NCBI GenBank assembly: GCA_038215155.1
Contig: JBBQRF010000001.1
Coordinates: 54,042 to 118,041 of the forward strand
From: Minisyncoccia bacterium
GTDB taxonomy: Bacteria > Patescibacteriota > Minisyncoccia > Phycocordibacterales > CAJBRS01
Length of the DNA: 64,000 bases
Reading direction: 5' to 3'
The notes beneath the pieces are model-generated. The model made no database searches. It was given only the letters and a program-made list of their open reading frames with translations, and was not told where the DNA came from. A program made the translations under genes and the position numbers. Position 1 is the stretch's first letter. Each line of letters starts with the position of its first letter. Below are positions 1,079-34,859 of this stretch, piece after piece.

Positions 1079-1276
1079 TTAAGCTTTTGTAACGTTCTTG
1101 GCAGCCGGTCCTCGGTCTGTATCTTCTACTTCAAAGTTCACTGCATCTCCTTCTCGGAGTTCAGCAAAAGTTGTGCCACTGACGCTCTCTGAATGAAAGA
1201 AAAGGTCCTTAGCTTCGCCCTCGCGAGAGATAAAACCAAATCCTCGATCAGTCAATTTTTTGATTGTTCCAGTCAT
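1079..1276 (-). CDS. csp: cold-shock protein (CspA family)
   Basis: 65 aa; GTIKKLTDRGFGFISREG...DLFFHSESV contains the RNP1/RNP2-like cold-shock-domain motifs. Confidence 0.92.
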   Translation of the reverse strand: MTGTIKKLTDRGFGFISREGEAKDLFFHSESVSGTTFAELREGDAVNFEVEDTDRGPAAKNVTKA

Positions 1277-1333
1277 TGTTTTTTTGTTTAAAATGTATAA
1301 AGCGACCCTTTCTTAAAAAGAAATTAAAAATAA

Positions 1334-1558
1334 TTACTCCGCTCGAGTTCGCAGCCAGTCAATTACGTGCTTTCTGTGTCTGTCCGTTGTCCAACGATCC
1401 CCGTCTTTAAAGAGCGATTGATGCTCGCTTTTAAATTGGTGGAGATTGCTGAGGGTAACCCGTGGGAAACTTTCTGGCACGTTGGAGTTGTAGAAATTCT
1501 GAAATTCATTAATCGAGAGCAGTATCTCGCTAGGGTTTATTTTAGGAGTTTTTGTCAT
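1334..1558 (-). CDS. hypothetical small protein
   Basis: 74 aa from ATG at 1558. The track's longer start at 1567 is a TTG. The ATG lies 1 nt from the stop of the upstream DEAD-box helicase, suggesting translational coupling. No recognisable domain. Confidence 0.35.
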   Translation of the reverse strand: MTKTPKINPSEILLSINEFQNFYNSNVPESFPRVTLSNLHQFKSEHQSLFKDGDRWTTDRHRKHVIDWLRTRAE

Positions 1559-1559
1559 A

Positions 1560-2702
1560 TTAATCAATGAAGGTTAAGGCCTTACCTTTCTTGTTTCCTC
1601 GCCCTGTGCGGCCGATTCGGTGAATATAATCGTCGTTAGTAGCCGGTAAATCAAAATTGATGACGTGGGAAATATTATCTATATCCAAGCCTCGGGCAGC
1701 TACATCCGTCGCCACCAGCACCTGTATATGGTTTTCTTTGAAAAGTTTTAAAGCTCTCTGTCGCTGACTATGATTCTTATTACCGTGGATAGAATCAGAT
1801 TTGAAGCCTCTTTTGCCTAGTATCTGAGAGAGATTTTCCACTCCCCTTTTTGTGCGTCCAAAGATTAGCACTTTTGTAAGCTCTTTTTGGTTTAGTAAAT
1901 CGTGTAGAAGTTCGGTCTTGTTTTGACTTCGGCCGACTCTAATAACGTCCTGCTCCACATTTTTAGCGGTATCTTGGCTTTTGACAGAAATTCGCACTGC
2001 TTCATGCAAGAACTCGTGAATTAATTTATCAATCTCCGGTGAAAGAGTGGCGGAAAAAAATAAAGTCTGTCGCTTCTTTGGCATGGCGCCCATGATAATT
2101 CTCATATCATTGATAAAGCCCATGTCGAGCATTCGATCTGCTTCATCTAAGACAATGGTATTGAAATTAGCTGGACGAATGAGGTGGCGGTTAATCAAGT
2201 CTTTTAATCGTCCCGGCGTACCAATAATAAAATTATTCTTGTATTTTAATTCTCTAATCTGTGGGCCAATAGGCGCTCCTCCCACGCAACAAACAGAAAA
2301 GATTTTCATGCCAGAGGCAAAATCTTTTAGTTCGCTCTGAATCTGAATAGCTAGTTCTCTAGTTGGCACAATAATCATTATTTCCTCCGCCCTATTTAAG
2401 AGAACTTTATTAATTAGAGGAATGATAAAAGCGGCTGTTTTACCAGTGCCTGTGTTGGCGATACCTACCAGGTCTGACCCTTCGAGGATACGACCAATAG
2501 CCCGATCCTGGATGGGAGTCGGCATCGTATACTTTTTATTGACGATAGATTTTTTCAGGATTTGCTCAATCTTGAAATCTTCAAATCGATGTTCAGGTTT
2601 GAAATGCTCCGCTTCTTCCGTAATAACGGCTTTATTGATGAATTTTGCAAAATTGATCTTTTCAGTCTTTCCCTTGAACTTCCGTGGATATTTCTTATAC
2701 AT
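1560..2702 (-). CDS. DEAD-box ATP-dependent RNA helicase
   Basis: 380 aa with Q-motif region, Walker A GTGKTAAF, DEAD, SAT, and HRIGRTGR (motif VI). Confidence 0.92.
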   Translation of the reverse strand: MYKKYPRKFKGKTEKINFAKFINKAVITEEAEHFKPEHRFEDFKIEQILKKSIVNKKYTMPTPIQDRAIGRILEGSDLVGIANTGTGKTAAFIIPLINKVLLNRAEEIMIIVPTRELAIQIQSELKDFASGMKIFSVCCVGGAPIGPQIRELKYKNNFIIGTPGRLKDLINRHLIRPANFNTIVLDEADRMLDMGFINDMRIIMGAMPKKRQTLFFSATLSPEIDKLIHEFLHEAVRISVKSQDTAKNVEQDVIRVGRSQNKTELLHDLLNQKELTKVLIFGRTKRGVENLSQILGKRGFKSDSIHGNKNHSQRQRALKLFKENHIQVLVATDVAARGLDIDNISHVINFDLPATNDDYIHRIGRTGRGNKKGKALTFID

Positions 2703-2790
2703 TTTTCGATAACTCTCACTCGAAAGTTTAGAAAAACTAAGGAGAATCGTTATAGCCCTATATTACTAGAGAAACCGGAATACGTCAAGG

Positions 2791-2827
2791 AAAACGCCGC
2801 ACGCCCATGGGCGCGCGGCGTTTTCAC
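2791..2827 (-). terminator. GC-rich hairpin terminator after secreted-protein gene
   Basis: cgccgcacgccc-atg-ggcgcgcggcg hairpin flanked by A-run and T-run (aaaa / ttttcac). It lies directly downstream of the stop of the gene at 2849..3556 on the minus strand. Confidence 0.5.
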
Positions 2828-2848
2828 TAAAACTTAGTTTCGATCTGG

Positions 2849-3556
2849 TTATCTTCGAAAGATTTTGAAAAACCAGCCGAAGAGACTAACTCCACTTGCA
2901 TGAGCGTCGATGAAAGCTTGTAAGGATGCTTGCTCTCTAACCAATACTTGAATTTGAGTGTTCAATTCTGCCTTTATAGCAACGTCAGTAGAAGAAGCAG
3001 CTAAAGCTCTTAATTGATTGATGGTTACTGTGGTGTTGGCTACCGCTGCTCTAAGGAGACTTAAACTAGTTTCATCTGTTCCAAAAAAGAAAACATGAAG
3101 TCGGCCTTGTCCTTCAAGATGGGACATTGCCGCAACAGTGCTTGAGCTTGAATGATCTTGATCTTCAGCAATGACACGAACCTTGGCTCCTATTCCTTTA
3201 TCGTGATCAGCAATATTAAGGAGATGCTGAACGAAACTAGCAACAACGCTTCGGTGCATGTCAGCACTTTCCTCACCCTGTGTTTCTACATCATTATCAT
3301 TCTTATCTTCGTTTCGTACCGTGGTAGTACTAGAATTATGTCCCGACACTTCGTCGCGTTCTCCACGATCTTTATGGCGAGAGTTTAAGTCACCATCAGC
3401 ATCTATTTCTTCAGAGGTATTTGCAGAATCTTCACCATTAGTAATCTTTAGTTGTGAATTCACGGAGGTTCGGAAATTTGTTTCCGCAAAAGCAAAACTG
3501 GAACTTATCAAACTAAGCATAAGGGCTAGGGATAAGAAAAGACTTGTTTTTTTCAT
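2849..3556 (-). CDS. secreted hypothetical protein (signal peptide)
   Basis: 235 aa; N-terminal MKKTSLFLSLALMLSLISSSFAFA signal-peptide-like segment; acidic, Ser/Asp-rich mature part with a predicted helical C-terminus. No recognisable catalytic motif. Confidence 0.5.
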   Translation of the reverse strand: MKKTSLFLSLALMLSLISSSFAFAETNFRTSVNSQLKITNGEDSANTSEEIDADGDLNSRHKDRGERDEVSGHNSSTTTVRNEDKNDNDVETQGEESADMHRSVVASFVQHLLNIADHDKGIGAKVRVIAEDQDHSSSSTVAAMSHLEGQGRLHVFFFGTDETSLSLLRAAVANTTVTINQLRALAASSTDVAIKAELNTQIQVLVREQASLQAFIDAHASGVSLFGWFFKIFRR

Positions 3557-19579: not shown

Positions 19580-19612
19580 AAATAGGGGCGGGCGAAGCCC
19601 GCCCCTATTTCT
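19580..19612 (-). terminator. rho-independent terminator after ABC exporter gene
   Basis: aggggcgggc-gaag-cccgcccct hairpin immediately after the stop codon at 19612. Confidence 0.6.
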
Positions 19613-21429
19613 TAATCTTCTGCCTCTTCCTCCTCAATTGCTTTATCCTCCGAATCGGTAACGATAAAACCACCGGCCTGTAAATTCCATAGCTTCTGAT
19701 AAAGTCCGCCATCATTTTGGAGTAATGTCTGATGAGTCCCTTCTTCTACAATTTTGCCATTTTCTACTACTACGATTCTATCCATCTTTTGGATAGTGGA
19801 GAGTCTGTGAGCGATGACAATAACTGTTTTTCCTATCATTAATTTATCCAATGCATCTTGAATTAATTGTTCTGAATGTGAATCAAGACTTGATGTGGCT
19901 TCATCGAGTACCAAGATCGGTGCATTCTTAAGAATAGCGCGAGCAATGGCCACCCGTTGACGTTCTCCTCCTGAAAGTTTAATTCCTCGCTCCCCTACGT
20001 AAGTTTCATATTTTTTCGGCAAGCTCTCAATGAACTCATCGCAATGAGCGAGGCGAGCCGCCGCAATAACCTCGTCATCGGAGGCATCCCGACGGCCATA
20101 CCTAATATTTTCCATTAGAGTTCGATGAAAAAGGATTGGATCTTGCGGTACTAAACTAATATTTTTATGCAGACTTTGCTGAGTGACGGTCTGAATATTT
20201 TGCTCATCCACAATAATTTCTCCTTCTTTAACATTATAAAGACGGAGCAACAGTCGAACAAAGGTAGATTTCCCTGCACCGGACGGGCCGATCAAGGCCA
20301 CTTTTTCGCCGCTCACAATCTTTAGATTAACCTCATCCAACACCTTTCTGTTCTCATTAAAACTGAAAGATAAATTTTTAAATTCTACTTCCCCTTTAGT
20401 AACAGTTAGCTCCTTTGCCTGCGGCGCATCCTGAATTTCTTGGGGTAATTCTAAAATTTCCACCATTTCCTTAGCATCAGCAAAGGCTTGATAGAAATCC
20501 TTTACAACGCTACTAAAGCTCCATAATCGATAACCTAGCCCTAGGACGTAGGTCTCAAATAAAACAAATGTTCCCAAGCTAATCTGACCGTTGGCCCATA
20601 GCCGAATGGAAAAATAAAAAATAAAAAACTCCATGAAAACAATAAACAGCATTTGAATTGCGTTCATCGTGTCATCTAAAGTGGCGACAAATAGACCAAT
20701 CTTCTGCTGATCATTGGTAACGCTTTTAAATCGATCATCTTCAAAACGCTCGCCGGTGAAAAGCTGGATTGTGTTGTGGTTAGTGATATTGTCGGAGAGC
20801 ACTGCCGATGATCGAGTATCTGCCTCCGCTTTTTGCAGATCATATTTTAATTTAAATCGAGCAAAGAAGTAATTAAAATTTAAAAATAAAATCATCCAAA
20901 TAATAATGACCCATCCAATAGTGTGGTTAATACTGAAGACAATTATAATAGTTCCGACAATACGAATACTGATTGGCAAGAGATTGAAAGTAATTCGATC
21001 CACTAGCCGCTCAAAGGCTCGAGCGTACCTACCAATTTTTTGCGTTAACGAACCGGTGAAATTATTGGCAAAAAAAGTGTATGAATGACGAATTAAATAC
21101 TCAAAGGCATTTTGTCGAAGAAGAGTTGATCCTTTAGTTTGGAAGCGGTCTATGGAAAATTGACCGTATTGCGAAAAGAGCCAATCCAATAAATTCAACA
21201 ATAGAATTATGAGAATGATCTTAGAAAGAAGAGGTACGGCGGCTAATCTGTCCGGAGAGCCATCAAGAATATTAAAGAAGTTTCTGTATTGGAGTGGAAT
21301 GAATAAGGCAATGATGGTTGGTAGAATGCCTCCTAAAATCGTTGAGACAAACCAAAAAGGCAAGCTCTTCACTACCTGCCAATACGAGCCTATCACCTGC
21401 TTTATTCCTATTTTGGGGTATTTAGTCAT
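19612..21429 (-). CDS. ABC transporter permease/ATPase (type I exporter, MsbA-like)
   Basis: 605 aa; 6-TM N-terminal domain; Walker A GPSGAGKST, signature LSGGERQR, Walker B ILVLDEATS. Confidence 0.88.
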   Translation of the reverse strand: MTKYPKIGIKQVIGSYWQVVKSLPFWFVSTILGGILPTIIALFIPLQYRNFFNILDGSPDRLAAVPLLSKIILIILLLNLLDWLFSQYGQFSIDRFQTKGSTLLRQNAFEYLIRHSYTFFANNFTGSLTQKIGRYARAFERLVDRITFNLLPISIRIVGTIIIVFSINHTIGWVIIIWMILFLNFNYFFARFKLKYDLQKAEADTRSSAVLSDNITNHNTIQLFTGERFEDDRFKSVTNDQQKIGLFVATLDDTMNAIQMLFIVFMEFFIFYFSIRLWANGQISLGTFVLFETYVLGLGYRLWSFSSVVKDFYQAFADAKEMVEILELPQEIQDAPQAKELTVTKGEVEFKNLSFSFNENRKVLDEVNLKIVSGEKVALIGPSGAGKSTFVRLLLRLYNVKEGEIIVDEQNIQTVTQQSLHKNISLVPQDPILFHRTLMENIRYGRRDASDDEVIAAARLAHCDEFIESLPKKYETYVGERGIKLSGGERQRVAIARAILKNAPILVLDEATSSLDSHSEQLIQDALDKLMIGKTVIVIAHRLSTIQKMDRIVVVENGKIVEEGTHQTLLQNDGGLYQKLWNLQAGGFIVTDSEDKAIEEEEAED

Positions 21430-23983: not shown

Positions 23984-24559
23984 ATGGCATTATTTTTTAT
24001 TATCCCAGGATATGGCGAAAGTCCCAATGGCAAGGCGTATCGAAAAATTGCCTTGGCTGCTAAAAAGAAAGGTCATATCCCTGTGCCAATTGAAGTAGAT
24101 TGGAGAAAAAACAAATCAATGTCTTTGTATGTTAAAGAGACTAAGCAAAAAATTCGAACATCCTTAAAAAATCAAAAAGACAAAGATATTCAAATTCTCG
24201 GGTTTTCTTTTGGGGCCTATATAGCGGCTCTATTGACTCGTAAGTATTACTTTCAAAAAATATATTTTTGTTCGATGTCACCCTACTTTAAGGATGACTT
24301 TTCTGCAATTCCAACCGAGTGGAAAAAAAAATTAGGTAAAAAAATGCTACAAAGTCTGCAAAAATACAAATTTCCAACAACTTCAAAATGCTCCGCGGTA
24401 TTTCTGGTGGGCAAAAAAGAACCTCCTATTTCAATCAATCGATTTCACAAATCTTACAGACAATGGAGAGGAAGAAAGAAAAAATTTATTATCGAAAAGT
24501 CTGATCATGATATTGGCAATGCTGCATATTTAAAAAAAGTTTTGGAGGTAATAAATTAA
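23984..24559 (+). CDS. alpha/beta-hydrolase-fold protein (putative esterase)
   Basis: 191 aa; GFSFGA nucleophile elbow (GxSxG); C-terminal DHD. Very AT-rich and Lys-rich. Confidence 0.5.
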   Translation: MALFFIIPGYGESPNGKAYRKIALAAKKKGHIPVPIEVDWRKNKSMSLYVKETKQKIRTSLKNQKDKDIQILGFSFGAYIAALLTRKYYFQKIYFCSMSPYFKDDFSAIPTEWKKKLGKKMLQSLQKYKFPTTSKCSAVFLVGKKEPPISINRFHKSYRQWRGRKKKFIIEKSDHDIGNAAYLKKVLEVIN

Positions 24560-24582
24560 AAAAGCACCTAAACATTAGATGC

Positions 24583-25533
24583 TCACTCTTTTACTTTATC
24601 TTGCAATAGAGATAGATGAAATTTGGTGATTTCATCACCTCGCTTCTGGTTAAAAAATCCATACCAGTCGCCGCAAGGATTGAAGTCAATCAAAATCAGC
24701 TGTCCTTCTTTGGTTAGCAGAAATTCAGGACTAGCAAAAGATAGGTTTAGCTTTTTAAGCAAGATTTTGCATGCATCCTTCACACTGGTCGCAAGCTGAA
24801 AATTCTTCCAATTAAGTCTGTCGAACTTCTTTGTGGAGGCATTTCTTTTTTGTATTTTACTTAATACGCTCGCGCAGACTGCCCAACACTTATCTTCGGT
24901 AATGTGAGTCCTGACGTGATAAGAAGTATCAATCAGTTCCTGCCACTGCCACAGCAACCCATCCTCAACTATTTTCGGATTCAGGATACATTCACGTGTA
25001 ATCGTGACTTCCTTCGAGTAGCTTCTCTTATTGGAAATCATGAAAGAATGTCCCAGACTTTTTTTACACAGAATTGTAGGGGACAATCGAGTTGGAGGTA
25101 ACATTCCATTAATGCAAAATGAGGGGACCAGTAATCCACTTTTCTGAGCTTGATCCAGTAGGAATATCTTCGAATCTCCATTGGAAATGCGTTGGGGTGT
25201 TCCTGGAAACCATTGGTTCGGGAACAACCTACCTAATTCCTCTAGAAATTGACCCAGAACATACCTATAAACTTGAGGAAACGAGTATTTGGAATTAAGC
25301 ATTAAAGCGCTATCGGCTCGAATTGGAGCTGATGCGTAAAAAATCGGTCGATTTATAGGTCGCAGCTGATAATAGCAGACTGTCTTTTTATCGACATATC
25401 CAAAGGATAATTCACCTCGGATCGAGTGAATATCTATAATATGGATTGGCAAACCAAAATGTGGAGCTAATCTTTGAAGAGCGACCAAGTGTGGATCCAC
25501 CGAACTAACCCGACTCGATATGACAAAGATCAT
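24583..25533 (-). CDS. ATP-grasp-like protein (graspetide maturase-like, possibly degenerate)
   Basis: 316 aa; N-terminal segment MIFVISSRVSSVDPHLVALQRLAPHFGLPIHIID resembles a pre-ATP-grasp domain; central KIFLLDQAQKSGLLVP; C-terminal LILIDFNPCGDWYGF resembles the E-x-N-P-x-G-x-W Mg-site motif with D in place of E. Confidence 0.45.
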   Translation of the reverse strand: MIFVISSRVSSVDPHLVALQRLAPHFGLPIHIIDIHSIRGELSFGYVDKKTVCYYQLRPINRPIFYASAPIRADSALMLNSKYSFPQVYRYVLGQFLEELGRLFPNQWFPGTPQRISNGDSKIFLLDQAQKSGLLVPSFCINGMLPPTRLSPTILCKKSLGHSFMISNKRSYSKEVTITRECILNPKIVEDGLLWQWQELIDTSYHVRTHITEDKCWAVCASVLSKIQKRNASTKKFDRLNWKNFQLATSVKDACKILLKKLNLSFASPEFLLTKEGQLILIDFNPCGDWYGFFNQKRGDEITKFHLSLLQDKVKE

Positions 25534-25552
25534 AAATTTCCTTCCTAAGGAG

Positions 25553-25590
25553 GTAAAAAAAGAAGCGTAGAGACTAGCCCTACGCTTCTC
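25553..25590 (-). terminator. hairpin terminator/attenuator between small ORF and ATP-grasp gene
   Basis: gaagcgtag-(10 nt)-ctacgcttc stem, followed on the minus strand by a run of 7 T. Confidence 0.55.
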
Positions 25591-25594
25591 TAAT

Positions 25595-25714
25595 TTAGCC
25601 GCAAAAATGCTTGGTGGGGCGTCGAACTTTCTTGCTCATCTCTTGGATGAGTTGCTCCTTCGAGCCTTCCAACACTCCTAACTTCCGCATTTTTCTGCAC
25701 ATGAGCTTTTTCAT
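25595..25714 (-). CDS. 39-aa basic small ORF with strong SD (candidate peptide)
   Basis: GGAGGT-ATC-ATG; translation MKKLMCRKMRKLGVLEGSKEQLIQEMSKKVRRPTKHFCG. It lies directly downstream of the histidine kinase gene and upstream of the hairpin. Below the 60-aa cut-off of the ORF track. Confidence 0.3.
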   Translation of the reverse strand: MKKLMCRKMRKLGVLEGSKEQLIQEMSKKVRRPTKHFCG

Positions 25715-25810
25715 GATACCTCCGTGTTTTTTATTTTAAGAACAGCTCAGCACACGCTGGATGCTCTAAAAGTAGATTACTTAATGGATTATTTTTGTCA
25801 ATGGAAGTCC

Positions 25811-27409
25811 TTATGCTGCTGGCAGTTCTACCCAAAATGTAGATCCTTTCCCGGTTCCTTCTGATTCTGCCCAAATGCGGCCTTTGTGAGCTTCCACAAT
25901 TTCCTTGGCGATGAAGAGGCCGTAGCCGGTGCTGTTGACGTTGACCTTGGTGGATTCTTTGCCACGACCACCTTCAGTAAAGAGCCGTTTCTTATCTTCT
26001 TCGGTAATGCCCACACCCGTGTCTTTTATACTAAAAAATATTTTCCCATCTTTTTTAGCCAATGAGATTTTCAAGCCACCCTTCAGGGTGTATTTAATAG
26101 AGTTATCAATCAGATTCCCCACGACATGTTGACTGAGTTGATCTCGATCGCCAATGGTGGTGAAATCGACATCTCCCGGAATAATAGTCTCCAATGTCAG
26201 ATTTTTATTTCGAGCCTCCTTTGTGTGTCCCTCAATCTGATCAACGACTACTTTTCGGAAATCAAAAGACTCTCGTTTATATGTAACTGTTCCCTTCTTT
26301 AAGTTAGCGGCGCTTAAGATACTCATTACTGTCTCTACTCCCTCCTGATTATCTCTAAGCCCTTCTTTGGCGACAGATTTAATAGAATCAGGAGTCTCAC
26401 CAAAATCCCCTTCAAGTATTCCAGCAAAAGCAGCCTTACTCTTGGTCAAGTATCCCTTGATTTGATGGCTGACGAAATGAATCAGACCTTCCTGGCGGTC
26501 ATTGGCAAGTTGTAATTCACTGGCCAAATGTTCAATCTTCTCGCGCTGCTCTACCTCGCGCAAAACTCCTCGAATGAGATTGATTCCAAAAATTAAAACT
26601 AAAATAAAAATACTGCTTCGAAATATAATTAATGAAGCAGTATTGGCAAAGATTATTTCGATAAAACTTACGAGAGCTAAGAAAAAAGTAATTATTGCAG
26701 TGCTAACCACTTTTACATTAAATAAATGATGTCGAGCTATGGCATAGGCGGTAAAAAGAACAAATGGAAAAACGAAAAGGGCGCTCAGGGGTATGAACCT
26801 TGTGTTGTTTAATAGCGTAGGAAAAATTAAATTAAAAACAATTATCAAAGTAAACATGATGCTCACGCCCGAAAGCAAAAGAGTAAATTGTTTTCTTTCG
26901 ATTCCGCCTGCTATACCTCTTTTTTTTACCATTAAGAAAATCCCGTTTCCTACTAAAGACACTGCTAATATTACAAACAACAAAATACCGGGTGCTGCTA
27001 TGGGTTGCGACACAGTGCCTAATGGTGCCGCTTTAATACCAGAATAGACAAAAGGAGTCAACGTTAACAAAGCAGTGCCCAAAACAGCGAGCTTTAAATG
27101 TCTTCTATATTTAGAGGTAAATGTAAACGTGGTGTTAGGAAAGACAGACATAAGCTTATAAAAAAAATATGCCTGAAAAATAGCAAAAAATAACACTAAT
27201 TTAATCAGAAACAAGACTAATGAAATATTGGCAACTTGGTAGTTTAAATAACTTACGACTCCCCATAACATAGTGCTAACAGAAAAACCCAAAAAGTATT
27301 TATTTGTGATGCTTTTTGGGTTACTAAAATAAATTACCGAGCCCAAAATTCCCGTACTTGCAACGACAAAACCAACAGACAAAAGATCAAAATTATGGAA
27401 CGAAGACAT
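25811..27409 (-). CDS. sensor histidine kinase with polytopic (about 7 TM) input domain
   Basis: 532 aa; about 300-aa hydrophobic N-terminus with no large periplasmic loop; H-box HFVSHQIKGYL; N-box GNLIDNSIKYT; G1 DTGVGI; G2 GYGLFIAKEIVEAHKG. No response-regulator gene in the window. Confidence 0.85.
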   Translation of the reverse strand: MSSFHNFDLLSVGFVVASTGILGSVIYFSNPKSITNKYFLGFSVSTMLWGVVSYLNYQVANISLVLFLIKLVLFFAIFQAYFFYKLMSVFPNTTFTFTSKYRRHLKLAVLGTALLTLTPFVYSGIKAAPLGTVSQPIAAPGILLFVILAVSLVGNGIFLMVKKRGIAGGIERKQFTLLLSGVSIMFTLIIVFNLIFPTLLNNTRFIPLSALFVFPFVLFTAYAIARHHLFNVKVVSTAIITFFLALVSFIEIIFANTASLIIFRSSIFILVLIFGINLIRGVLREVEQREKIEHLASELQLANDRQEGLIHFVSHQIKGYLTKSKAAFAGILEGDFGETPDSIKSVAKEGLRDNQEGVETVMSILSAANLKKGTVTYKRESFDFRKVVVDQIEGHTKEARNKNLTLETIIPGDVDFTTIGDRDQLSQHVVGNLIDNSIKYTLKGGLKISLAKKDGKIFFSIKDTGVGITEEDKKRLFTEGGRGKESTKVNVNSTGYGLFIAKEIVEAHKGRIWAESEGTGKGSTFWVELPAA

Positions 27410-27424
27410 TTGTGTAAAATTATA

Positions 27425-28453
27425 TCAGTTTTTTAAAACGTCTGAAACCGAAAGACGCGGACTATGTGGTTGCGAAGTGATTGCGCGGCCTACTCGAAAT
27501 ATAAATTGACTATGAAAACCGGGCTTTATAAAAAAATTTAATTTTTCTCGATAATTCGGAGACAAGATGGGTGCTGCCCATACTGCCGTTTTTAAATTGA
27601 ATTGTTCTGCAATTAAGGCGATTCTTTCATAGCATTCCCCCACCTTTATCCAATCAACTTTTGTATCCGTCATGGAACTTAACAAAATATAAGCTGGAGT
27701 ACCGTCAGTGAGTATTTTTAAAGTCGAAGACTTATTAAGGCGATCCATATTAAAAAATTTTACTAAATTAGGAACAATAAAAGATGGTAATAGAGGTATA
27801 CCCATCCCAAATGCAGGGATACCAATTTTGGATTTTGTTATATTATTTTTCACATATGGACTGAGTTCTCGTCGAAATTTTGAATTGTCCATTAATTCTA
27901 TATTTGAACTAACTATTATATCCGCAATTCCCTCTTTATCTGTATGGCCGTCAACAACGTTTATATTCATCTTAGGATTATCCAACTGAGAAAGTGCTTC
28001 TCTAAATTCTATAGAAAGTGGCTCCCTATGATAATTACTACGATTTACAGATCTTTTTACAATTGAAAAAATCAAGTGAGAAGAATTTTTTCGTATTGCG
28101 GTTTCGTCGAAACGAATGATGGCGACTAGATTTTCATGTATTGCATCAGGAAGATAAGAGACGTCGTATGATAGGCCGTAGTAATCTGCGGCTACACGTA
28201 TGTTTTCGATAGCACACCCCAAATTCATCAATAATAATCTATTATCAGGGTCACCCACCTTTAATTTTCGGAGAGAATTTTGGTAAATAAAAATACTTTG
28301 GTCGCGTATTTCAAAAATCCATGGCTGACTGTTATGACTCGAGGGCGCTAGAACTGCAAAATTAATTAGGAAATGTAATTTTTCTTTCCACGTGCGGCAC
28401 TCTTCGTATTTAGCAAAGTCAATGTCCCAAGGTTTATAATTTTCCTTTTCCAT
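27425..28453 (-). CDS. two-domain nitroreductase-family flavoprotein (SagB/Acg-like?)
   Basis: About 342 aa from ATG 28453. APSSHNSQPW is the nitroreductase-family FMN-binding motif. Its length implies a tandem or two-lobed nitroreductase fold. Confidence 0.6.
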   Translation of the reverse strand: MEKENYKPWDIDFAKYEECRTWKEKLHFLINFAVLAPSSHNSQPWIFEIRDQSIFIYQNSLRKLKVGDPDNRLLLMNLGCAIENIRVAADYYGLSYDVSYLPDAIHENLVAIIRFDETAIRKNSSHLIFSIVKRSVNRSNYHREPLSIEFREALSQLDNPKMNINVVDGHTDKEGIADIIVSSNIELMDNSKFRRELSPYVKNNITKSKIGIPAFGMGIPLLPSFIVPNLVKFFNMDRLNKSSTLKILTDGTPAYILLSSMTDTKVDWIKVGECYERIALIAEQFNLKTAVWAAPILSPNYREKLNFFIKPGFHSQFIFRVGRAITSQPHSPRLSVSDVLKN

Positions 28454-28457
28454 ATAA

Positions 28458-29870
28458 TTATTTTTTAACCCACCGTTGTTTGCCTTGTGAATTAAAATAT
28501 TTTGAATGTTGGTAAGGCCACCCAATAATTAACGGAATTACTTTTGAGGGTTCGGTTGAATAAAGATAAGCATATTCTGAATTGTGAGTTCGCAAACCCA
28601 GTATTATAGATTCGGTAATTTGTTTTTTTAATTTGGGATTCCAGCGTATTCCTTTTTTAAGTTCAACGTGTATTTCCAGTATTCTATCCATTTTTTTGTT
28701 CTCACGTTTCATCATGGTAGCCTTTCCTGTTAGATAGCGATTTAAAGGATAGCTGTCGATAATAGACCTAATTTCCTCCGGATAAATGTTTGCACCTCTA
28801 AAAACCATACCTAAGTCTGACCGTGCATAGACATAAACAAAGGGCAACTTTAATATTTGATCAAATATTTTATATTTTAAAATTTCCTTCTCGATACTAA
28901 TTCCACTTTTTTTTAACTTTCTCATCATTTCGTCATAAGTAATCACACCCCCAAGATCTGCAAACTCGTAACGAATAAGCGGAATAGAAGAGCCATAATT
29001 AGTGGCTACTACTTTTTTTCCAACCTCCTCAAAAAAAATACTTTGCGGGTAATATTGACCTATTGTCGGAATATTGGTGGCATGTGGAAAGATGGATAAA
29101 AAAACTTTCGGATTTTCATTGGCAATTTTTCGGATTAAGTTAGACAAGGATGTTTCATGCGCAATCGTTCCTTGTTCAACGGTACCGTAAATATTGATAA
29201 TATCGTTTAAAGGGTTTTTTAACCCAGATTTTTTGACAATATAATTGCGGAATTCCTCGGAATACCCTTCCGCAGCAGTTAAAATACGTAAATTATGTTT
29301 AGACCAATGAATGCCTGCCTCCTTTCCACTATCTAAAATATCTTTTATGAAAGGTGGGTAGCCCATCAAGATAACTTGATCATAAAAAGGAGCGAACTTT
29401 TTAAACGACTGAAGATATAACTCTTTGTTTGTGCCGACCGGTACAAGTGTAAAATCATAACCTTTCTGGGCAATTTTGTTGAAATTCTTGTAGGTAAAGA
29501 TGCCGCCAATCCAAATACCAAGTCCAAAGCCCACTATGCCTAGGGTGCGCTTCTTATCTAATTCAAATTGATTGATTAAAAAAATCTCCGATGCGTGCTC
29601 ATATTGACGATCGTGGTCCTCATCGCGCGGAAAGAAAAAAGGCTCACCAGTAGATCCTGAAGTGGCTGAGATTGTCGTTGCCACGGAGACATCTCGATTT
29701 GGAAAAAGGTCAAGATAATCGTGGCTACGGAGATAAGCGTCCTTTGAAAGAAGCGGTAGTTTATGAAAATCCTTGATAGTGGAAATCCGTCCCTTGAATC
29801 CTTGTTTTCTAATAAATTGGCGATAGGCGGGAACGGTTTCGTAAACATACTTAAATAAATTTATAGCCAT
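28458..29870 (-). CDS. PaaK/F390-synthetase-like adenylate-forming enzyme
   Basis: About 470 aa from ATG 29870, preceded by AGGGGGAAAAT. SATSGSTGEPFFFPR resembles the PaaK-family AMP-binding motif. An in-frame open extension upstream (possible starts at 29987/30023) leaves the start uncertain. Confidence 0.55.
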   Translation of the reverse strand: MAINLFKYVYETVPAYRQFIRKQGFKGRISTIKDFHKLPLLSKDAYLRSHDYLDLFPNRDVSVATTISATSGSTGEPFFFPRDEDHDRQYEHASEIFLINQFELDKKRTLGIVGFGLGIWIGGIFTYKNFNKIAQKGYDFTLVPVGTNKELYLQSFKKFAPFYDQVILMGYPPFIKDILDSGKEAGIHWSKHNLRILTAAEGYSEEFRNYIVKKSGLKNPLNDIINIYGTVEQGTIAHETSLSNLIRKIANENPKVFLSIFPHATNIPTIGQYYPQSIFFEEVGKKVVATNYGSSIPLIRYEFADLGGVITYDEMMRKLKKSGISIEKEILKYKIFDQILKLPFVYVYARSDLGMVFRGANIYPEEIRSIIDSYPLNRYLTGKATMMKRENKKMDRILEIHVELKKGIRWNPKLKKQITESIILGLRTHNSEYAYLYSTEPSKVIPLIIGWPYQHSKYFNSQGKQRWVKK

Positions 29871-29979
29871 ATTTTCCCCCTGCCTCTTCCAATATGCTGC
29901 GGGCCGTCTTTTGTAATATGCCAAAGATTTCTCAATCTTGGGAGGAACGAAGTGGGCAAATTTATTTTTCTTTTTGGGG

Positions 29980-31068
29980 CTAGGCATAGGAATTAAAAAT
30001 CTTTTCGGCCATGATATTGGCAATAATATTAGGCGCGGTATTTTCTTTTTTGCTTTTTCTTAAAATATTTTGAAGGGTGTTAGGGATTTCCAACACTTGT
30101 TTTAGTACTTTATTTTCACGATATGTCTTATTCTTAAATTCATCGAAAACAGCAATGAGGCCGCCGGCATTAATGACGTAGTCGGGCGCGTATAGAATAT
30201 CCAATTTGTGGAGCAGTACTCCGATATTTTCATTGGCTAATTGGTTGTTGGCACTACCGGCTATGATTTTAGCTCTAATTTCGGTAATAGTCATTGAGCT
30301 AAGGGAGCCGCTCAGGGCACACGGAGAGAAGACGTCGACATTTTGTTTATGAATTTCTTCCGGCTTTACTATAATCACTTTTGGAAATTTGCGGCGGCAA
30401 AGAGCAATGGCTTTTGGATCGATGTCAGCTCCATAAATTTTCCCCGCTTCAATTCCAGATTTCTTCATTTCTTTCTCAATCAAGGTAAGAAGGGCGTTTC
30501 CAACCTTACCTAACCCTTGGATAGCGAAACTCCTTCCTTCAAAAGAGGTATTGCCATAAATCTCTTTTAAGCAAACTTTTATTGATTCGAAAATGCCGAC
30601 TGCTGTTAAAAAGGTGGCATTGTCATTGAAACCGACTATTTGATTTTTAGCAGCCTTCATTGAATTGAGGTCGCGTCTAAAGACGCCGGCATCCGTCCCG
30701 GTGACGAAGTGAGTAGAGAGAAAGGCTACTTTTTCGGCGTAACTTCTGAAGAGCTCCTTTCGCTTTTTTTCATCTCTATTCCCCACCTTATCAATGATCA
30801 CTCCCTTGGCGCCGCCACAATCAAGTCCTGCCATGGCGGATTTATATGACATAAGGCGAGATAAGCGAAGAGCATCCTGAAGTGCCTCGTTCAGTGAGCC
30901 GTATTGCCACAAACGTGTAGCGCCGAAAGATGGAATGGAAGGATTAGAACGATGAATAACAATAAATCCTTCTAGTCCGGAAGCTTCATCCTGAAGGTAG
31001 GCCACGAAACGATGATCATCAAACTCTGAAAAATCCTTTATGCTTTTTTCAGCTAAAAAGTCGGGCAT
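29980..31068 (-). CDS. Glu/Leu/Phe/Val amino-acid dehydrogenase family (Leu/Phe-DH-like)
   Basis: 362 aa; GATRLWQYGSLNEALQDALRLSRLMSYKSAMAGLDCGGAKGVI matches the LeuDH/PheDH substrate/catalytic-Lys region (GGTRMW...GGGK); Rossmann GLGKVG. Confidence 0.75.
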   Translation of the reverse strand: MPDFLAEKSIKDFSEFDDHRFVAYLQDEASGLEGFIVIHRSNPSIPSFGATRLWQYGSLNEALQDALRLSRLMSYKSAMAGLDCGGAKGVIIDKVGNRDEKKRKELFRSYAEKVAFLSTHFVTGTDAGVFRRDLNSMKAAKNQIVGFNDNATFLTAVGIFESIKVCLKEIYGNTSFEGRSFAIQGLGKVGNALLTLIEKEMKKSGIEAGKIYGADIDPKAIALCRRKFPKVIIVKPEEIHKQNVDVFSPCALSGSLSSMTITEIRAKIIAGSANNQLANENIGVLLHKLDILYAPDYVINAGGLIAVFDEFKNKTYRENKVLKQVLEIPNTLQNILRKSKKENTAPNIIANIMAEKIFNSYA

Positions 31069-31073
31069 AGTGT

Positions 31074-32153
31074 TTAAGCGTGAGTTGAATGAGTAATGTC
31101 TGTGGGTGAAATATAACTTCGAATATCTAAATCAGTACTTTCTCCAGAGACGACTTTCTTCAGCATGGCAGTTACGACGACGCCGCCTAAAATTGCGGCG
31201 GAGCCAAGCTGAGGCCAAGAAACAAGTTCCTTGGAAATTACACGGGGTACAGCCATCATCATGTTGGGGTCCACTTTGTCGGGTCCTCCGACAATATCTC
31301 CGATAATCATTTTGCCCGCCATTTCTTTAGTGAAAGGGCCAGCAGCCAATTTCTTTTTAAAATATTCGACGTCTTTGCCCCATATCTTGGTGTTGCCTAA
31401 ATCGTATCTTTCAACATGGAGAACTACGCCGTCGCCATTATCGGTCACCATTAATACGGCTTTTTTATATTTTATGGCAAGGAGGCGGGCATGAATTTTA
31501 AATGGCATATCATCAATTTCCTCAACAATGCAGTCAATCTTCCCCGCTTTCAATAATTCTTCTAAGTTATCTTCGTTTACGCCATCTTTCAATAACGTTA
31601 CTTCCGCAAAAGGATTGTCTTCGTAGATGCGGCGAGCGGCAATGATGGTCTTGTTGATACCTATCTGATGAGCACCTGCTAAGATTCTGTTTAAATTAGT
31701 GGTGTCGAGCTCGTCGAAATCAGCTAAGACGATCTTATTTGAGATTCCAGCTTGAGTCATGACGAAAGCAATGTTAGAGCCAACACTCATTCCAAGGACA
31801 GCTACTTTATAATCCCGTAATTTTTTCTGAAGATCGGGTGATATTAGTCCGTCGTTTCTGTTAGTCTTCAGGCGATAGTAGTTGTCGGCTTTAACTGTTT
31901 TGATTAAATGATGATTCCATGGGAAATAAACGTGAATAAAATCGTCCTTTTTATCATCGGTGTATTTTTTGAAGTCATCGGTCTTGTAGACTTCTTCTTT
32001 GTCTTGGCCGATGAATGAATGATTATCAATAAAGAACAATTCTTTTAGCTGACGATCAAAAGCGTCAACAACAGTGATATAGGAGTGCTGATTTAGAAAT
32101 TCTTCTACCTTCTCCGAGCTTTCAAAATAAAGCGGTTTTTCAGAAGTGTCCAT
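31074..32153 (-). CDS. E1-like (ThiF/MoeB/MccB superfamily) adenylyltransferase with N-terminal extension
   Basis: 359 aa; KVAVLGMSVGSNIAFVMTQAGI...IVLADFDELDTTNLNR matches the E1 nucleotide-binding fold (GxGxxG ... D.D.V..SNLNRQ). It has about 110 aa N-terminal and about 100 aa C-terminal extensions and no CxxC zinc motif. Confidence 0.7.
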   Translation of the reverse strand: MDTSEKPLYFESSEKVEEFLNQHSYITVVDAFDRQLKELFFIDNHSFIGQDKEEVYKTDDFKKYTDDKKDDFIHVYFPWNHHLIKTVKADNYYRLKTNRNDGLISPDLQKKLRDYKVAVLGMSVGSNIAFVMTQAGISNKIVLADFDELDTTNLNRILAGAHQIGINKTIIAARRIYEDNPFAEVTLLKDGVNEDNLEELLKAGKIDCIVEEIDDMPFKIHARLLAIKYKKAVLMVTDNGDGVVLHVERYDLGNTKIWGKDVEYFKKKLAAGPFTKEMAGKMIIGDIVGGPDKVDPNMMMAVPRVISKELVSWPQLGSAAILGGVVVTAMLKKVVSGESTDLDIRSYISPTDITHSTHA

Positions 32154-33650: not shown

Positions 33651-34859
33651 ATGAAAGAATTTCATCTGGAAGACATTCCTGTACGGTTTCACCAAAAAAA
33701 AGATGCTCCAATTTATATCAGAGTTCAGTTTTTGGCTGGAAGTCGCTTTGACGAAAAGGAAGGTACTGCCCACTTTCTAGAACATATGATGTGCGCAGGC
33801 AGCCAAAAATTTACCACCAAGAATTTATTGGCTGAATACATAGAAGCTGTGGGTGGAAATTTCGCCTTAAGCACTAGTAGTGATTATATTAATATTGATA
33901 TCCAGGTTCCGACAAAAGATGAGATGAAGATTGCGGTGGTGATATTAGATGAAATGGTGAATCATTCGCTTTTTGAGCCCGCAACCTTAGAGACTGAGAG
34001 GGGCTCAATCTTGTCCGAACAAGTTATAGCCAAAAATGCACAACGTTCTTATATTCATACAGTATTCAAGAAATTAGCCTATCAAAAAACTGATATTGCA
34101 AAAAATGTCCTCGGAACCAAGGAGTCTGTGATGACTATAACCACGGAGGATCTAAAAAAACACAGGACCAAATATATCCATAGGCAGACTTTAAAAATCT
34201 TAGTTGTGGGAGATATTAGTGAGGAAGAACTCATAAAGGAAATGCGAGGTATAAATTGGGCAACTGGTCCATGTTTTATCGTGGTTAATTTACCCATAGT
34301 AGCAAATCAATTATTTGTCCTTGAAATTTATAATTCAAAAGAGGCTACCCTTCGAGCCGGTTTTAGATTAAGTACTTTTGATATTAAGAATCGAATCTGT
34401 GGGGATATTCTCGCGGAGTTTTTAGGCAGTAGTCGAAGTGGCATTTTAAGTCAAGAACTGCGATATAAAAGAGGTCTGATCTATTCCGCTTCCGCACACC
34501 ATTTTCAATCGATTGATGGGGGTACTTTTTCTGTTACTACCTCCACCGAGGTTAAAAATTTTGCCGAAGTTTTGTCCGTCATTAAACAGATCATAGAAGA
34601 TCTGATCGCTCAGGGAATTCCCGCCTCCACATTGAAATATATAAAATCTAAAATATTAAAATCTATGAAAATAGATTTACAGACCTCTAAAGCTTGGGTG
34701 AATTATATTGAGAATTATGATTTAGAAGAAACAAGCAGATACTTAGAGGATATAAGTGAAGGGGATATAAAAAATTATATCAATCAAAATTTTGCTATAG
34801 ATAAATTTTTTGTGGCCGTGTGCGGTCCAGAAGATCTTAGGATGATTTTAGAAAAGTAG
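33651..34859 (+). CDS. M16-family zinc peptidase (insulinase/pitrilysin-like, single chain)
   Basis: 402 aa; inverted zinc motif HFLEHM (HxxEH) near the N-terminus; downstream Glu-rich LETERGSILSE. Confidence 0.75.
   Translation: MKEFHLEDIPVRFHQKKDAPIYIRVQFLAGSRFDEKEGTAHFLEHMMCAGSQKFTTKNLLAEYIEAVGGNFALSTSSDYINIDIQVPTKDEMKIAVVILDEMVNHSLFEPATLETERGSILSEQVIAKNAQRSYIHTVFKKLAYQKTDIAKNVLGTKESVMTITTEDLKKHRTKYIHRQTLKILVVGDISEEELIKEMRGINWATGPCFIVVNLPIVANQLFVLEIYNSKEATLRAGFRLSTFDIKNRICGDILAEFLGSSRSGILSQELRYKRGLIYSASAHHFQSIDGGTFSVTTSTEVKNFAEVLSVIKQIIEDLIAQGIPASTLKYIKSKILKSMKIDLQTSKAWVNYIENYDLEETSRYLEDISEGDIKNYINQNFAIDKFFVAVCGPEDLRMILEK

Follow-up and report, generated by a model that had tools for sequence, protein, structure and literature searches.

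The closest described systems are graspetide loci, whose products have Ser, Thr and Lys as side-chain donors and Asp and Glu as side-chain acceptors (PMC13097080), and in a RODEO survey from 2026, which covered more than 20,000 graspetides, the acceptors were still defined as Asp or Glu. In characterised graspetides, the nucleophile lies N-terminal to the electrophile (PMC12291112). Makarova et al. (2022) distinguished two branches of graspetide ATP-grasps in Candidate Phyla Radiation (CPR) bacteria, and reported that most branch 2 loci had no identifiable precursor, that small open reading frames (ORFs) were possibly missed, and that an alpha/beta hydrolase may be co-located in the CPR loci (PMC8939145). 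Here, we analysed a stretch of 64,000 nucleotides from a Minisyncoccia bacterium (contig JBBQRF010000001.1, positions 54,042 to 118,041 of the forward strand; hereafter the window), in which a small ORF lies ahead of a gene for a 316-aa ATP-grasp ligase. A model-made original prediction, drawn from the sequence alone, had read this locus as a precursor gene, an attenuating hairpin and the gene of a modification enzyme, in the manner of the operons for peptides that are made by the ribosome and modified after translation (RiPPs).

This study provided evidence that a precursor peptide gene, a graspetide-type ligase gene and an esterase gene make up a three-gene, RiPP-like module, which is restricted to CPR/Patescibacteria as far as sampled. 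In the window, the module comprises the following features.

25774..25801, minus strand: promoter-like site of the precursor gene, TTGACA, N16 spacer and TAATCT (a consensus match only; putative function)
25723-25719, minus strand: GGAGG Shine-Dalgarno sequence of the precursor gene, 4 nt ahead of the ATG
25595..25714, minus strand: precursor peptide gene, 39 aa, MKKLMCRKMRKLGVLEGSKEQLIQEMSKKVRRPTKHFCG (from the ORF listing and from homologues upstream of the ligase)
25555..25591, minus strand: intrinsic-terminator-like hairpin in the precursor/ligase gap, with a 14-bp stem, a 5-nt loop and a T7 tract
25546-25539, minus strand: AGGAAGGA Shine-Dalgarno sequence of the ligase gene, read from the sequence
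24583..25533, minus strand: graspetide-type ATP-grasp ligase, 316 aa (from profiles, fold and residue conservation)
24562..24584, minus strand: terminator-like hairpin filling the 23 nt that separate the convergent ligase and hydrolase genes, made up of a 10-pair stem and then TTTT (a consensus match only)
23984..24559, plus strand: alpha/beta-fold serine hydrolase, esterase-like, 191 aa (from homologues and a model), convergent with the ligase

The small ORF, its Shine-Dalgarno sequence, the hairpin with its seven-T tail, and the Shine-Dalgarno sequence and start of the ligase gene were thus all located on the minus strand where the original prediction had placed them, and the same layout was found in 31 distinct loci from other contigs, so that both the small ORF and the hairpin proved to be conserved. 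Neither of the two findings that had been named in advance as fatal to the prediction, a lack of an ATP-grasp fold and an unconserved small ORF, was obtained. The convergent hydrolase and the fixed spacing between a Thr and the C-terminus of the peptide, described below, had not been part of it.

The related loci were gathered by exact-protein contig look-ups, a scan of one genome per species and a metagenome scan, and came exclusively from CPR/Patescibacteria genomes or uncultured-community metagenomes, the named hosts being Saccharibacteria-labelled, Parcubacteria, Campbellbacteria, Nomurabacteria, Paceibacterota and Vogelbacteria. Wherever the sequence upstream of the ligase was intact, a short ORF of 24–39 codons ends 40–90 nt ahead of the ligase start, and 31 distinct precursor peptides were collected, all directly upstream of the ligase. 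None of these ORFs had been called by the gene callers in any fetched contig with listed gene calls, and searches of 11 precursors against Pfam and NCBIfam returned no match. The recurrence of the peptide ORF, hairpin and ligase in this order in 31 distinct loci is far beyond chance expectation. At the invariant positions of the peptide, Thr and Gly are each encoded by all four of their codons and His and Cys by both of theirs, and all three stop codons occur; this full synonymous use indicates selection on the amino-acid sequence. A chance ORF was ruled out on the same grounds, namely conservation of the peptide in 31 loci with synonymous codon variation.

The assignment of the ligase rests on profile, structural and residue comparisons. 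Pfam gave no match for the 316-aa protein, and four ATP-grasp ribosomal-peptide-maturase models of NCBIfam matched it with E-values from 6.6e-11 to 1.3e-4; the scores against TIGR04187, TIGR04185 (MvdC), TIGR04184 (MvdD) and TIGR04192 were 42, 38, 30 and 21 bits, against cut-offs of 350, 425, 230 and 475, respectively. To judge from these scores, the ligase is a distant homologue that falls outside these four named families. When a profile of six family members was compared with the chains in the PDB, it matched the solved macrocyclases AMdnB (9e-20), MdnB (9e-16), CdnC (3e-15) and MdnC (5e-15) over a span from about residue 36 or 110 to residue 313. An AlphaFold2 model of the ligase was obtained with a mean predicted local distance difference test score (pLDDT) of 71.6 and a predicted template modelling score (pTM) of 0.73, and in the Foldseek search with this model the top 32 matches were all graspetide ligases (E-values from 2e-14 to 3e-10; TM scores of 0.56–0.70), the best of them including MdnC, PruB, AMdnB, CdnC, MdnB and PsnB, with RimK and ArgX ranking next. 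The proposal of an ATP-grasp protein resembling graspetide maturases is therefore borne out by maturase profiles that match below their cut-offs and by a modelled fold closest to the graspetide ligases. The resemblance of the N-terminus to a pre-ATP-grasp domain is weaker than first proposed, being visible only in the structure and in the profile alignment to CdnC and detected by no Pfam model.

An exhaustive hidden Markov model (HMM) search of 1.84 billion cluster representatives (50% identity clusters) delimited a ligase family of 47 representatives at E <= 1e-30, with scores running from 513 down to about 125 bits. Below a clear score gap, the generic graspetide ligases level off at about 100 bits or less, which indicates that the ligase family is a distinct small clade.

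Residue conservation was evaluated in an alignment of 41 family members and 87 outgroup ligases, and the correspondence to PsnB was taken from the HMM alignment. K122, K158, Q198, R208, R230, N285, P286, G288 and W290 are common to the family and the outgroup ligases, and K122, K158, Q198, R208, R230, D283, N285, G288 and W290 are kept in all 41 family members. R208 aligns with PsnB Arg213, which holds the ring-forming carboxylate beside ATP, and R230 aligns with Arg235 of the PsnB D(F/W)R (DFR) loop, which contacts the nucleotide (preprint 10.1101/2021.03.09.434688). The Mg-site strand of MdnB and AMdnB, E-x-N-P-x-G-E-W, is aligned with LILIDFNPCGDWYGF near the C-terminus of the ligase, in agreement with the motif that had been noticed there at the outset. 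The suspicion that the Glu-to-Asp substitution in this motif marks a degenerate enzyme did not hold, since Asp283 is invariant (41 of 41) and the catalytic residues are all retained; the substitution is a trait of the family rather than a sign of decay, and a degenerate enzyme was ruled out. Further invariants are specific to the family (R72, D74, R90, P110, Q196-W197-Q198, P269-E270, C287 and D289), in which His or Gln also replaces the acidic residue two positions ahead of R208. By these residue patterns, the ligase belongs to the graspetide ATP-grasp macrocyclase superfamily, as a divergent member with a complete set of catalytic residues.

Compared directly, the graspetide synthetases (MdnB/MdnC for microviridin, PsnB for plesiocin, CdnC for chryseoviridin, and PruB) have the same ATP-grasp fold and a 310–330 aa architecture, and their ATP-binding Lys, the PsnB Arg213 equivalent, the Arg of the D(F/W)R loop and the acid-x-Asn Mg site are also kept here. 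As in the graspetide loci, the precursor gene stands directly upstream and its core holds a Ser/Thr donor N-terminal to the presumed electrophile. The two differ, however, in that ligase identity is only 11–18%, with a best NCBIfam score of 42 bits against a cut-off of 350, and in that the family has motifs of its own (D-x-NPCGDW, QWQ, P-E-F, R72 and R90). Moreover, the precursors of the present family are 24–39 aa long and often have neither Asp nor Glu, and the esterase partner is obligatory.

The 31 precursor peptides fall into four classes by the C-terminal core.

Class A (the window included), 21 peptides: core R-[PIVK]-T-x-H-[HF]-C-G
Class B, 8 peptides: core [DG]-x-T-[RY]-Y-[ILY]-G-G
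Class C, 1 peptide: core G-R-T-M-G-F-V-D
Class D, 1 peptide: core G-C-S-N-G-I-A-V

In the window, the core R-P-T-K-H-F-C-G is followed immediately by the stop codon. The sole universally conserved position is the sixth from the C-terminus (-6), which is Thr in 30 of the 31 peptides and Ser in the remaining one; the last position (-1) is Gly in 29, Asp in one and Val in one. There is no conserved acidic position, such acidic residues as occur lying in the variable leader: seven of the 31 peptides, the L001 peptide among them, contain no Asp or Glu at all (one acid-free sequence is MKKQPLPQLSKQTRGGKPPRPTRHFCG), and 19 have none in the last 12 residues. An Asp or Glu side-chain acceptor in the core, by which graspetides are recognised, is therefore not a feature of this family. 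An amphipathic leader motif of the EISLEEL type recurs in many of the precursors. The core classes are intermingled when the ligases are arranged in a neighbour-joining tree, which indicates that the chemistry of the ligase depends on Ser/Thr(-6) and the C-terminus and is independent of the His and Cys of class A.

The third gene encodes the hydrolase. Wherever enough sequence was available past the ligase (about 40 loci), a hydrolase homologue is the next gene downstream and converges on it, and the genomic contexts of these approximately 40 ligase-hydrolase pairs are otherwise unrelated. In the window, the stop codons of the two genes are 23 nt apart, and the hairpin at 24562-24584 with its T run may serve as a bidirectional terminator. 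The hydrolase has the features of an alpha/beta-hydrolase serine esterase, namely the G-x-S-x-G elbow, the triad with acid and His, and the fold: PG..E, GFSFG (Ser75) and His175 are invariant or nearly so, and Asp/Glu146 is present in 27 of 30 sequences. With the AlphaFold2 model (pLDDT 95.7), the best Foldseek matches were feruloyl/cinnamoyl esterases, carboxylesterase Est30, monoglyceride lipases and type II thioesterases, and not peptidases. The hydrolase is a dedicated partner in the module and most likely opens an ester bond, in turnover, self-protection or quenching, or processes the precursor; it may also act in leader removal or acyl transfer.

The precursor peptide is, with good confidence, the substrate of the ligase. 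As for the product, we favour a macrolactone between the O-gamma of Thr(-6) and the C-terminal alpha-carboxylate, with a six-residue ring, and give this reading a probability of roughly 0.4–0.5. The C-terminal alpha-carboxylate is the one carboxylate present in all precursors, and the invariant nucleophile is always five residues away from it. Since many precursors have neither Asp nor Glu and the donor stands at a fixed distance from the C-terminus, the most likely acceptor is the alpha-carboxylate that the last residue carries; in those precursors that are free of acidic residues, it cannot be a side chain. The order of donor before acceptor agrees with that of the characterised graspetides, and the Arg that presents the carboxylate to ATP (R208) is retained in the ligase. 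The single class C core ends in Asp, which makes T-x4-D, a classical donor-acceptor pair in the same register, and so places the acceptor at residue -1; this Asp suggests a possible evolutionary route from a side-chain carboxylate to the alpha-carboxylate of the terminal residue. An enzyme that cleaves esters, linked to a ligase that forms them, is also consistent with the lactone.

In the proposed mechanism, the precursor gene would be expressed by way of a promoter of its own and a strong Shine-Dalgarno sequence, and the terminator-like hairpin would let only part of the transcripts continue into the ligase gene. The ligase would then bind the precursor through the EISLEEL-type amphipathic leader, where present, and through the C-terminal core, and would phosphorylate a carboxylate with ATP, after which the invariant Ser/Thr(-6) would attack the acyl phosphate. 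For the window peptide, the product would be a T-x-H-x-C-G ring with a mass change of -18 Da.

Several points weigh against the lactone. The predicted ring is deduced from sequence patterns alone. To our knowledge, no characterised graspetide synthetase uses an alpha-carboxylate. The current definitions of graspetides require an Asp or Glu acceptor (PMC13097080). Substrate recognition could account for the fixed -6 register, the C-terminus then being ligated to an external nucleophile, and the module has no conserved transporter or leader protease. Confidence in the ligase model is only moderate, with a pLDDT below 50 in the central lid (residues 140-195). In addition, residues 228-230 of the window ligase (24844-24852) are QKR where 40 of the 41 members have D-[LFY]-R; the Arg is retained, and the activity of this particular enzyme could be reduced by the exchange of D[LF]R for QKR.

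Ligation of the C-terminus without cyclisation, with Thr(-6) serving only for recognition and the hydrolase reversing the conjugation, is an unlikely reading that still carries some weight. Enzymes of this kind act on C-terminal carboxylates: RimK on ribosomal protein S6, LysX/ArgX on LysW, and glutathionylspermidine synthetase (GspS) on the Cys-Gly end of glutathione. RimK and LysX/ArgX resemble the proposed ligase as ATP-grasps that activate the carboxylate of the C-terminal residue of a ribosomal polypeptide, in the structure search RimK and ArgX rank directly behind the graspetide ligases, the C-terminus is the sole carboxylate common to all precursors, and a paired hydrolase suits a reversible conjugation. 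However, the ligase is clearly nearer to the macrocyclases than to RimK or LysX in both sequence and fold, and the strict hydroxyl residue at -6 across otherwise unrelated cores is left unexplained by ligation. Furthermore, RimK and LysX/ArgX add external amino acids to a C-terminal Glu, not Gly, act on substrates larger than a 24–39 aa peptide, and have neither graspetide-type motifs nor cyclisation.

A classical graspetide, with an omega-ester or omega-amide between Ser/Thr/Lys and Glu/Asp side chains, as the original prediction had proposed, is improbable. The enzyme does belong within the graspetide ligase superfamily, the window peptide does carry three Glu (Glu16, Glu20 and Glu25) together with Lys, Ser and Thr, and the class C core does terminate in Asp with T-x4-D spacing. 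Nevertheless, the Glu positions of the window peptide are unconserved, what acidic residues the precursors have sit in the variable leader helix, seven of the 31 precursors are free of acidic residues, and 19 of the 31 have none in the last 12 residues.

Expression signals were examined along with the peptide. The precursor/ligase intergenic region of the window has a minimum free energy (MFE) of -22.5 kcal/mol (z = -4.2); the stem (25591-25559) begins 3 nt past the precursor stop and runs into T7 at 25561-25555, so that a GC-containing stem-loop with a U tract follows the stop codon, as in intrinsic terminators. A strong hairpin after the precursor stop, in many cases bearing a T tract, is found in most of the 31 loci (MFE from -13 to -36 kcal/mol, z from -3 to -8); the ligase start was misplaced in a few loci, whose intergenic folds are uninformative. 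The hairpin sequences differ between loci, which indicates that the structure is the conserved feature. No Rfam family matched the precursor/ligase intergenic region, either at the gathering threshold or at E <= 1, by which a known RNA element was ruled out there; over the 64-kb window, Rfam/cmscan likewise returned no family at the gathering threshold (tRNA, rRNA, riboswitch), and ARAGORN was not run. Most precursor genes have a strong Shine-Dalgarno sequence, typically GGAGGTG, and TTGA[CT]N-N16-18-TAnnnT occurs within 160 nt upstream of the precursor ORF in 22 of 30 loci, compared with 5.6% of random 160-nt windows. No credible promoter was found between the hairpin and the ligase start in the window. 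The presumed role of the window hairpin is to attenuate transcription or to stabilise the precursor transcript as its 3' end, and the signals fit an abundant precursor transcript with partial read-through into the ligase gene; the predicted arrangement of precursor, attenuating hairpin and modification enzyme thus stands, with the leakiness of the hairpin presumed.

That the peptide is instead a regulatory leader, whose translation or stalling at the C-terminal motif controls the terminator and hence the expression of a ligase acting on some other substrate, is very improbable: a conserved peptide does end just ahead of a terminator hairpin, in the window 3 nt before the stem, but the stop-to-stem distance varies from about 0 to 19 nt across loci, which is incompatible with fixed ribosome masking, the core changes class with only Ser/Thr(-6) retained, there is no alternative antiterminator structure, the close structural relatives of the enzyme all modify the adjacent peptide, and a strong Shine-Dalgarno sequence with a separate promoter suits a highly expressed product.

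The macrolactone would share its side-chain-to-C-terminal-carboxylate topology with the agr/fsr pheromones, the staphylococcal autoinducing peptide (AIP) and the gelatinase biosynthesis-activating pheromone (GBAP) of Enterococcus faecalis, in which a Ser, Thr or Cys side chain is joined to the C-terminal alpha-carboxylate of a ribosomal peptide. Those rings are made by the membrane protease AgrB or FsrB, which removes a C-terminal tail and transacylates without ATP. The present precursor, in contrast, carries no tail beyond the ring, and its enzyme belongs to the ATP-grasps. In about 8 of about 30 loci only, the likeness extends to a multi-pass membrane histidine kinase beside the precursor. 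In the window, this is the following gene.

25811..27409, minus strand: seven-transmembrane (7TM) sensor histidine kinase (Pfam HATPase_c 1.5e-24, HisKA_7TM 6e-6)

The 96-nt spacer between the end of the kinase gene and the precursor ORF holds the promoter-like site. The kinase gene of the window and its homologues in two independent loci (L029/L030, with the L029 kinase at 902-2011, and L031, at 1040-2215) are directly upstream and share the strand of the module, and homologues lie within about 3 kb in L012, L013, L014/L015, L016 and L047, making up the approximately 8 of about 30 distinct loci. The search for a response regulator near the kinase by tblastn with CheY and PhoB, which has low sensitivity, found none, and the set of an AgrB/FsrB-type enzyme, a kinase and a response regulator that marks agr/fsr loci was not seen, with no search having been aimed at AgrB homologues. 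The proximity of the kinase is suggestive of a link to signalling that is not universal. It is distinctly unlikely, by our estimate, that the product is a cyclic depsipeptide signal, an ATP-grasp-cyclised CPR analogue of AIP/GBAP with the 7TM kinase as the receptor and the esterase as a quenching lactonase; if true, this would be the first peptide signalling system described in these episymbionts and the first graspetide-type enzyme using a C-terminal carboxylate.

Upstream of the kinase, a tightly packed run of genes occupies 27425-32153 on the minus strand.

31074-32153, minus strand: ThiF-family, Rv1355c-N-terminal-like adenylyltransferase
29980-31068, minus strand: ScyB-like amino-acid (Trp) dehydrogenase
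28458-30023, minus strand: PaaK-like adenylate-forming enzyme
27425-28525, minus strand: Acg/Rv3131-family FMN nitroreductase-like protein

The ThiF-like and nitroreductase-like proteins together resemble a split Rv1355c, and the run may be a cluster that modifies small molecules or peptides. None of its four genes is conserved beside the other ligase loci, and they were ruled out as part of the module and treated as an unrelated neighbouring cluster. An M16-family (insulinase-like) peptidase gene (33651-34859, plus strand), 8 kb away, could in principle process the peptide, and an ABC exporter gene (ABC_membrane and ABC_tran; 19612-21429, minus strand), 3 kb away, could in principle export it.

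In the Zambryskibacteria loci L017 and L053-L055 (in L053, positions 1101-3023), which were left out of the family statistics, the module is decayed or replaced and the esterase homologue is intact. Of the ligase family, only a 51-aa C-terminal remnant is left (L053 1689-1844, minus strand; FIDLNPCGDWYGF). Beside it stands an unrelated ligase of the classical graspetide type (EINPNGQW, DWRR), after which comes a 57-aa precursor whose core, TTSQWISNPNSKEWDYDQD, is of the classical acidic kind.

With regard to earlier descriptions, the CPR precursors listed by Makarova et al. are 55–80 aa long with Asp/Glu-rich cores such as ...GPGSYDTD, unlike the short precursors described here (PMC8939145). 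The strings HHCG, HFCG and NPCGDW were not found in the searchable part of the supplements to that paper, which falls short of proving their absence. The present ligase family, whose host group is that of the two CPR branches, may be part of branch 2. The literature search found no paper on this precursor family or on a graspetide-type ligase using an alpha-carboxylate; its coverage was incomplete and an earlier description is possible. Within these bounds, the CPR-restricted module of precursor, graspetide-type ligase and esterase is undescribed so far.

The genomes of CPR bacteria are roughly 1 Mb in size, and we know of almost no characterised secondary metabolism in these organisms. The precursors described here are candidates of the kind that earlier surveys suspected to have been missed by gene callers in CPR ATP-grasp loci. 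If the proposed chemistry is true, a clade that closes a ring on the peptide's own C-terminal carboxylate would extend the chemistry of graspetide synthetases, and the module would offer a minimal leader-guided tool for side-chain-to-tail cyclisation, consisting of a precursor of at least 24 aa, one 316-aa enzyme and a six-residue ring; head-to-tail rings might follow, speculatively, through an O-to-N acyl shift after leader removal. A near-invariant RPTxHxCG core with a dedicated esterase across many CPR lineages points to a conserved small-molecule function in these bacteria, which may lie in signalling, metal handling or host interaction.

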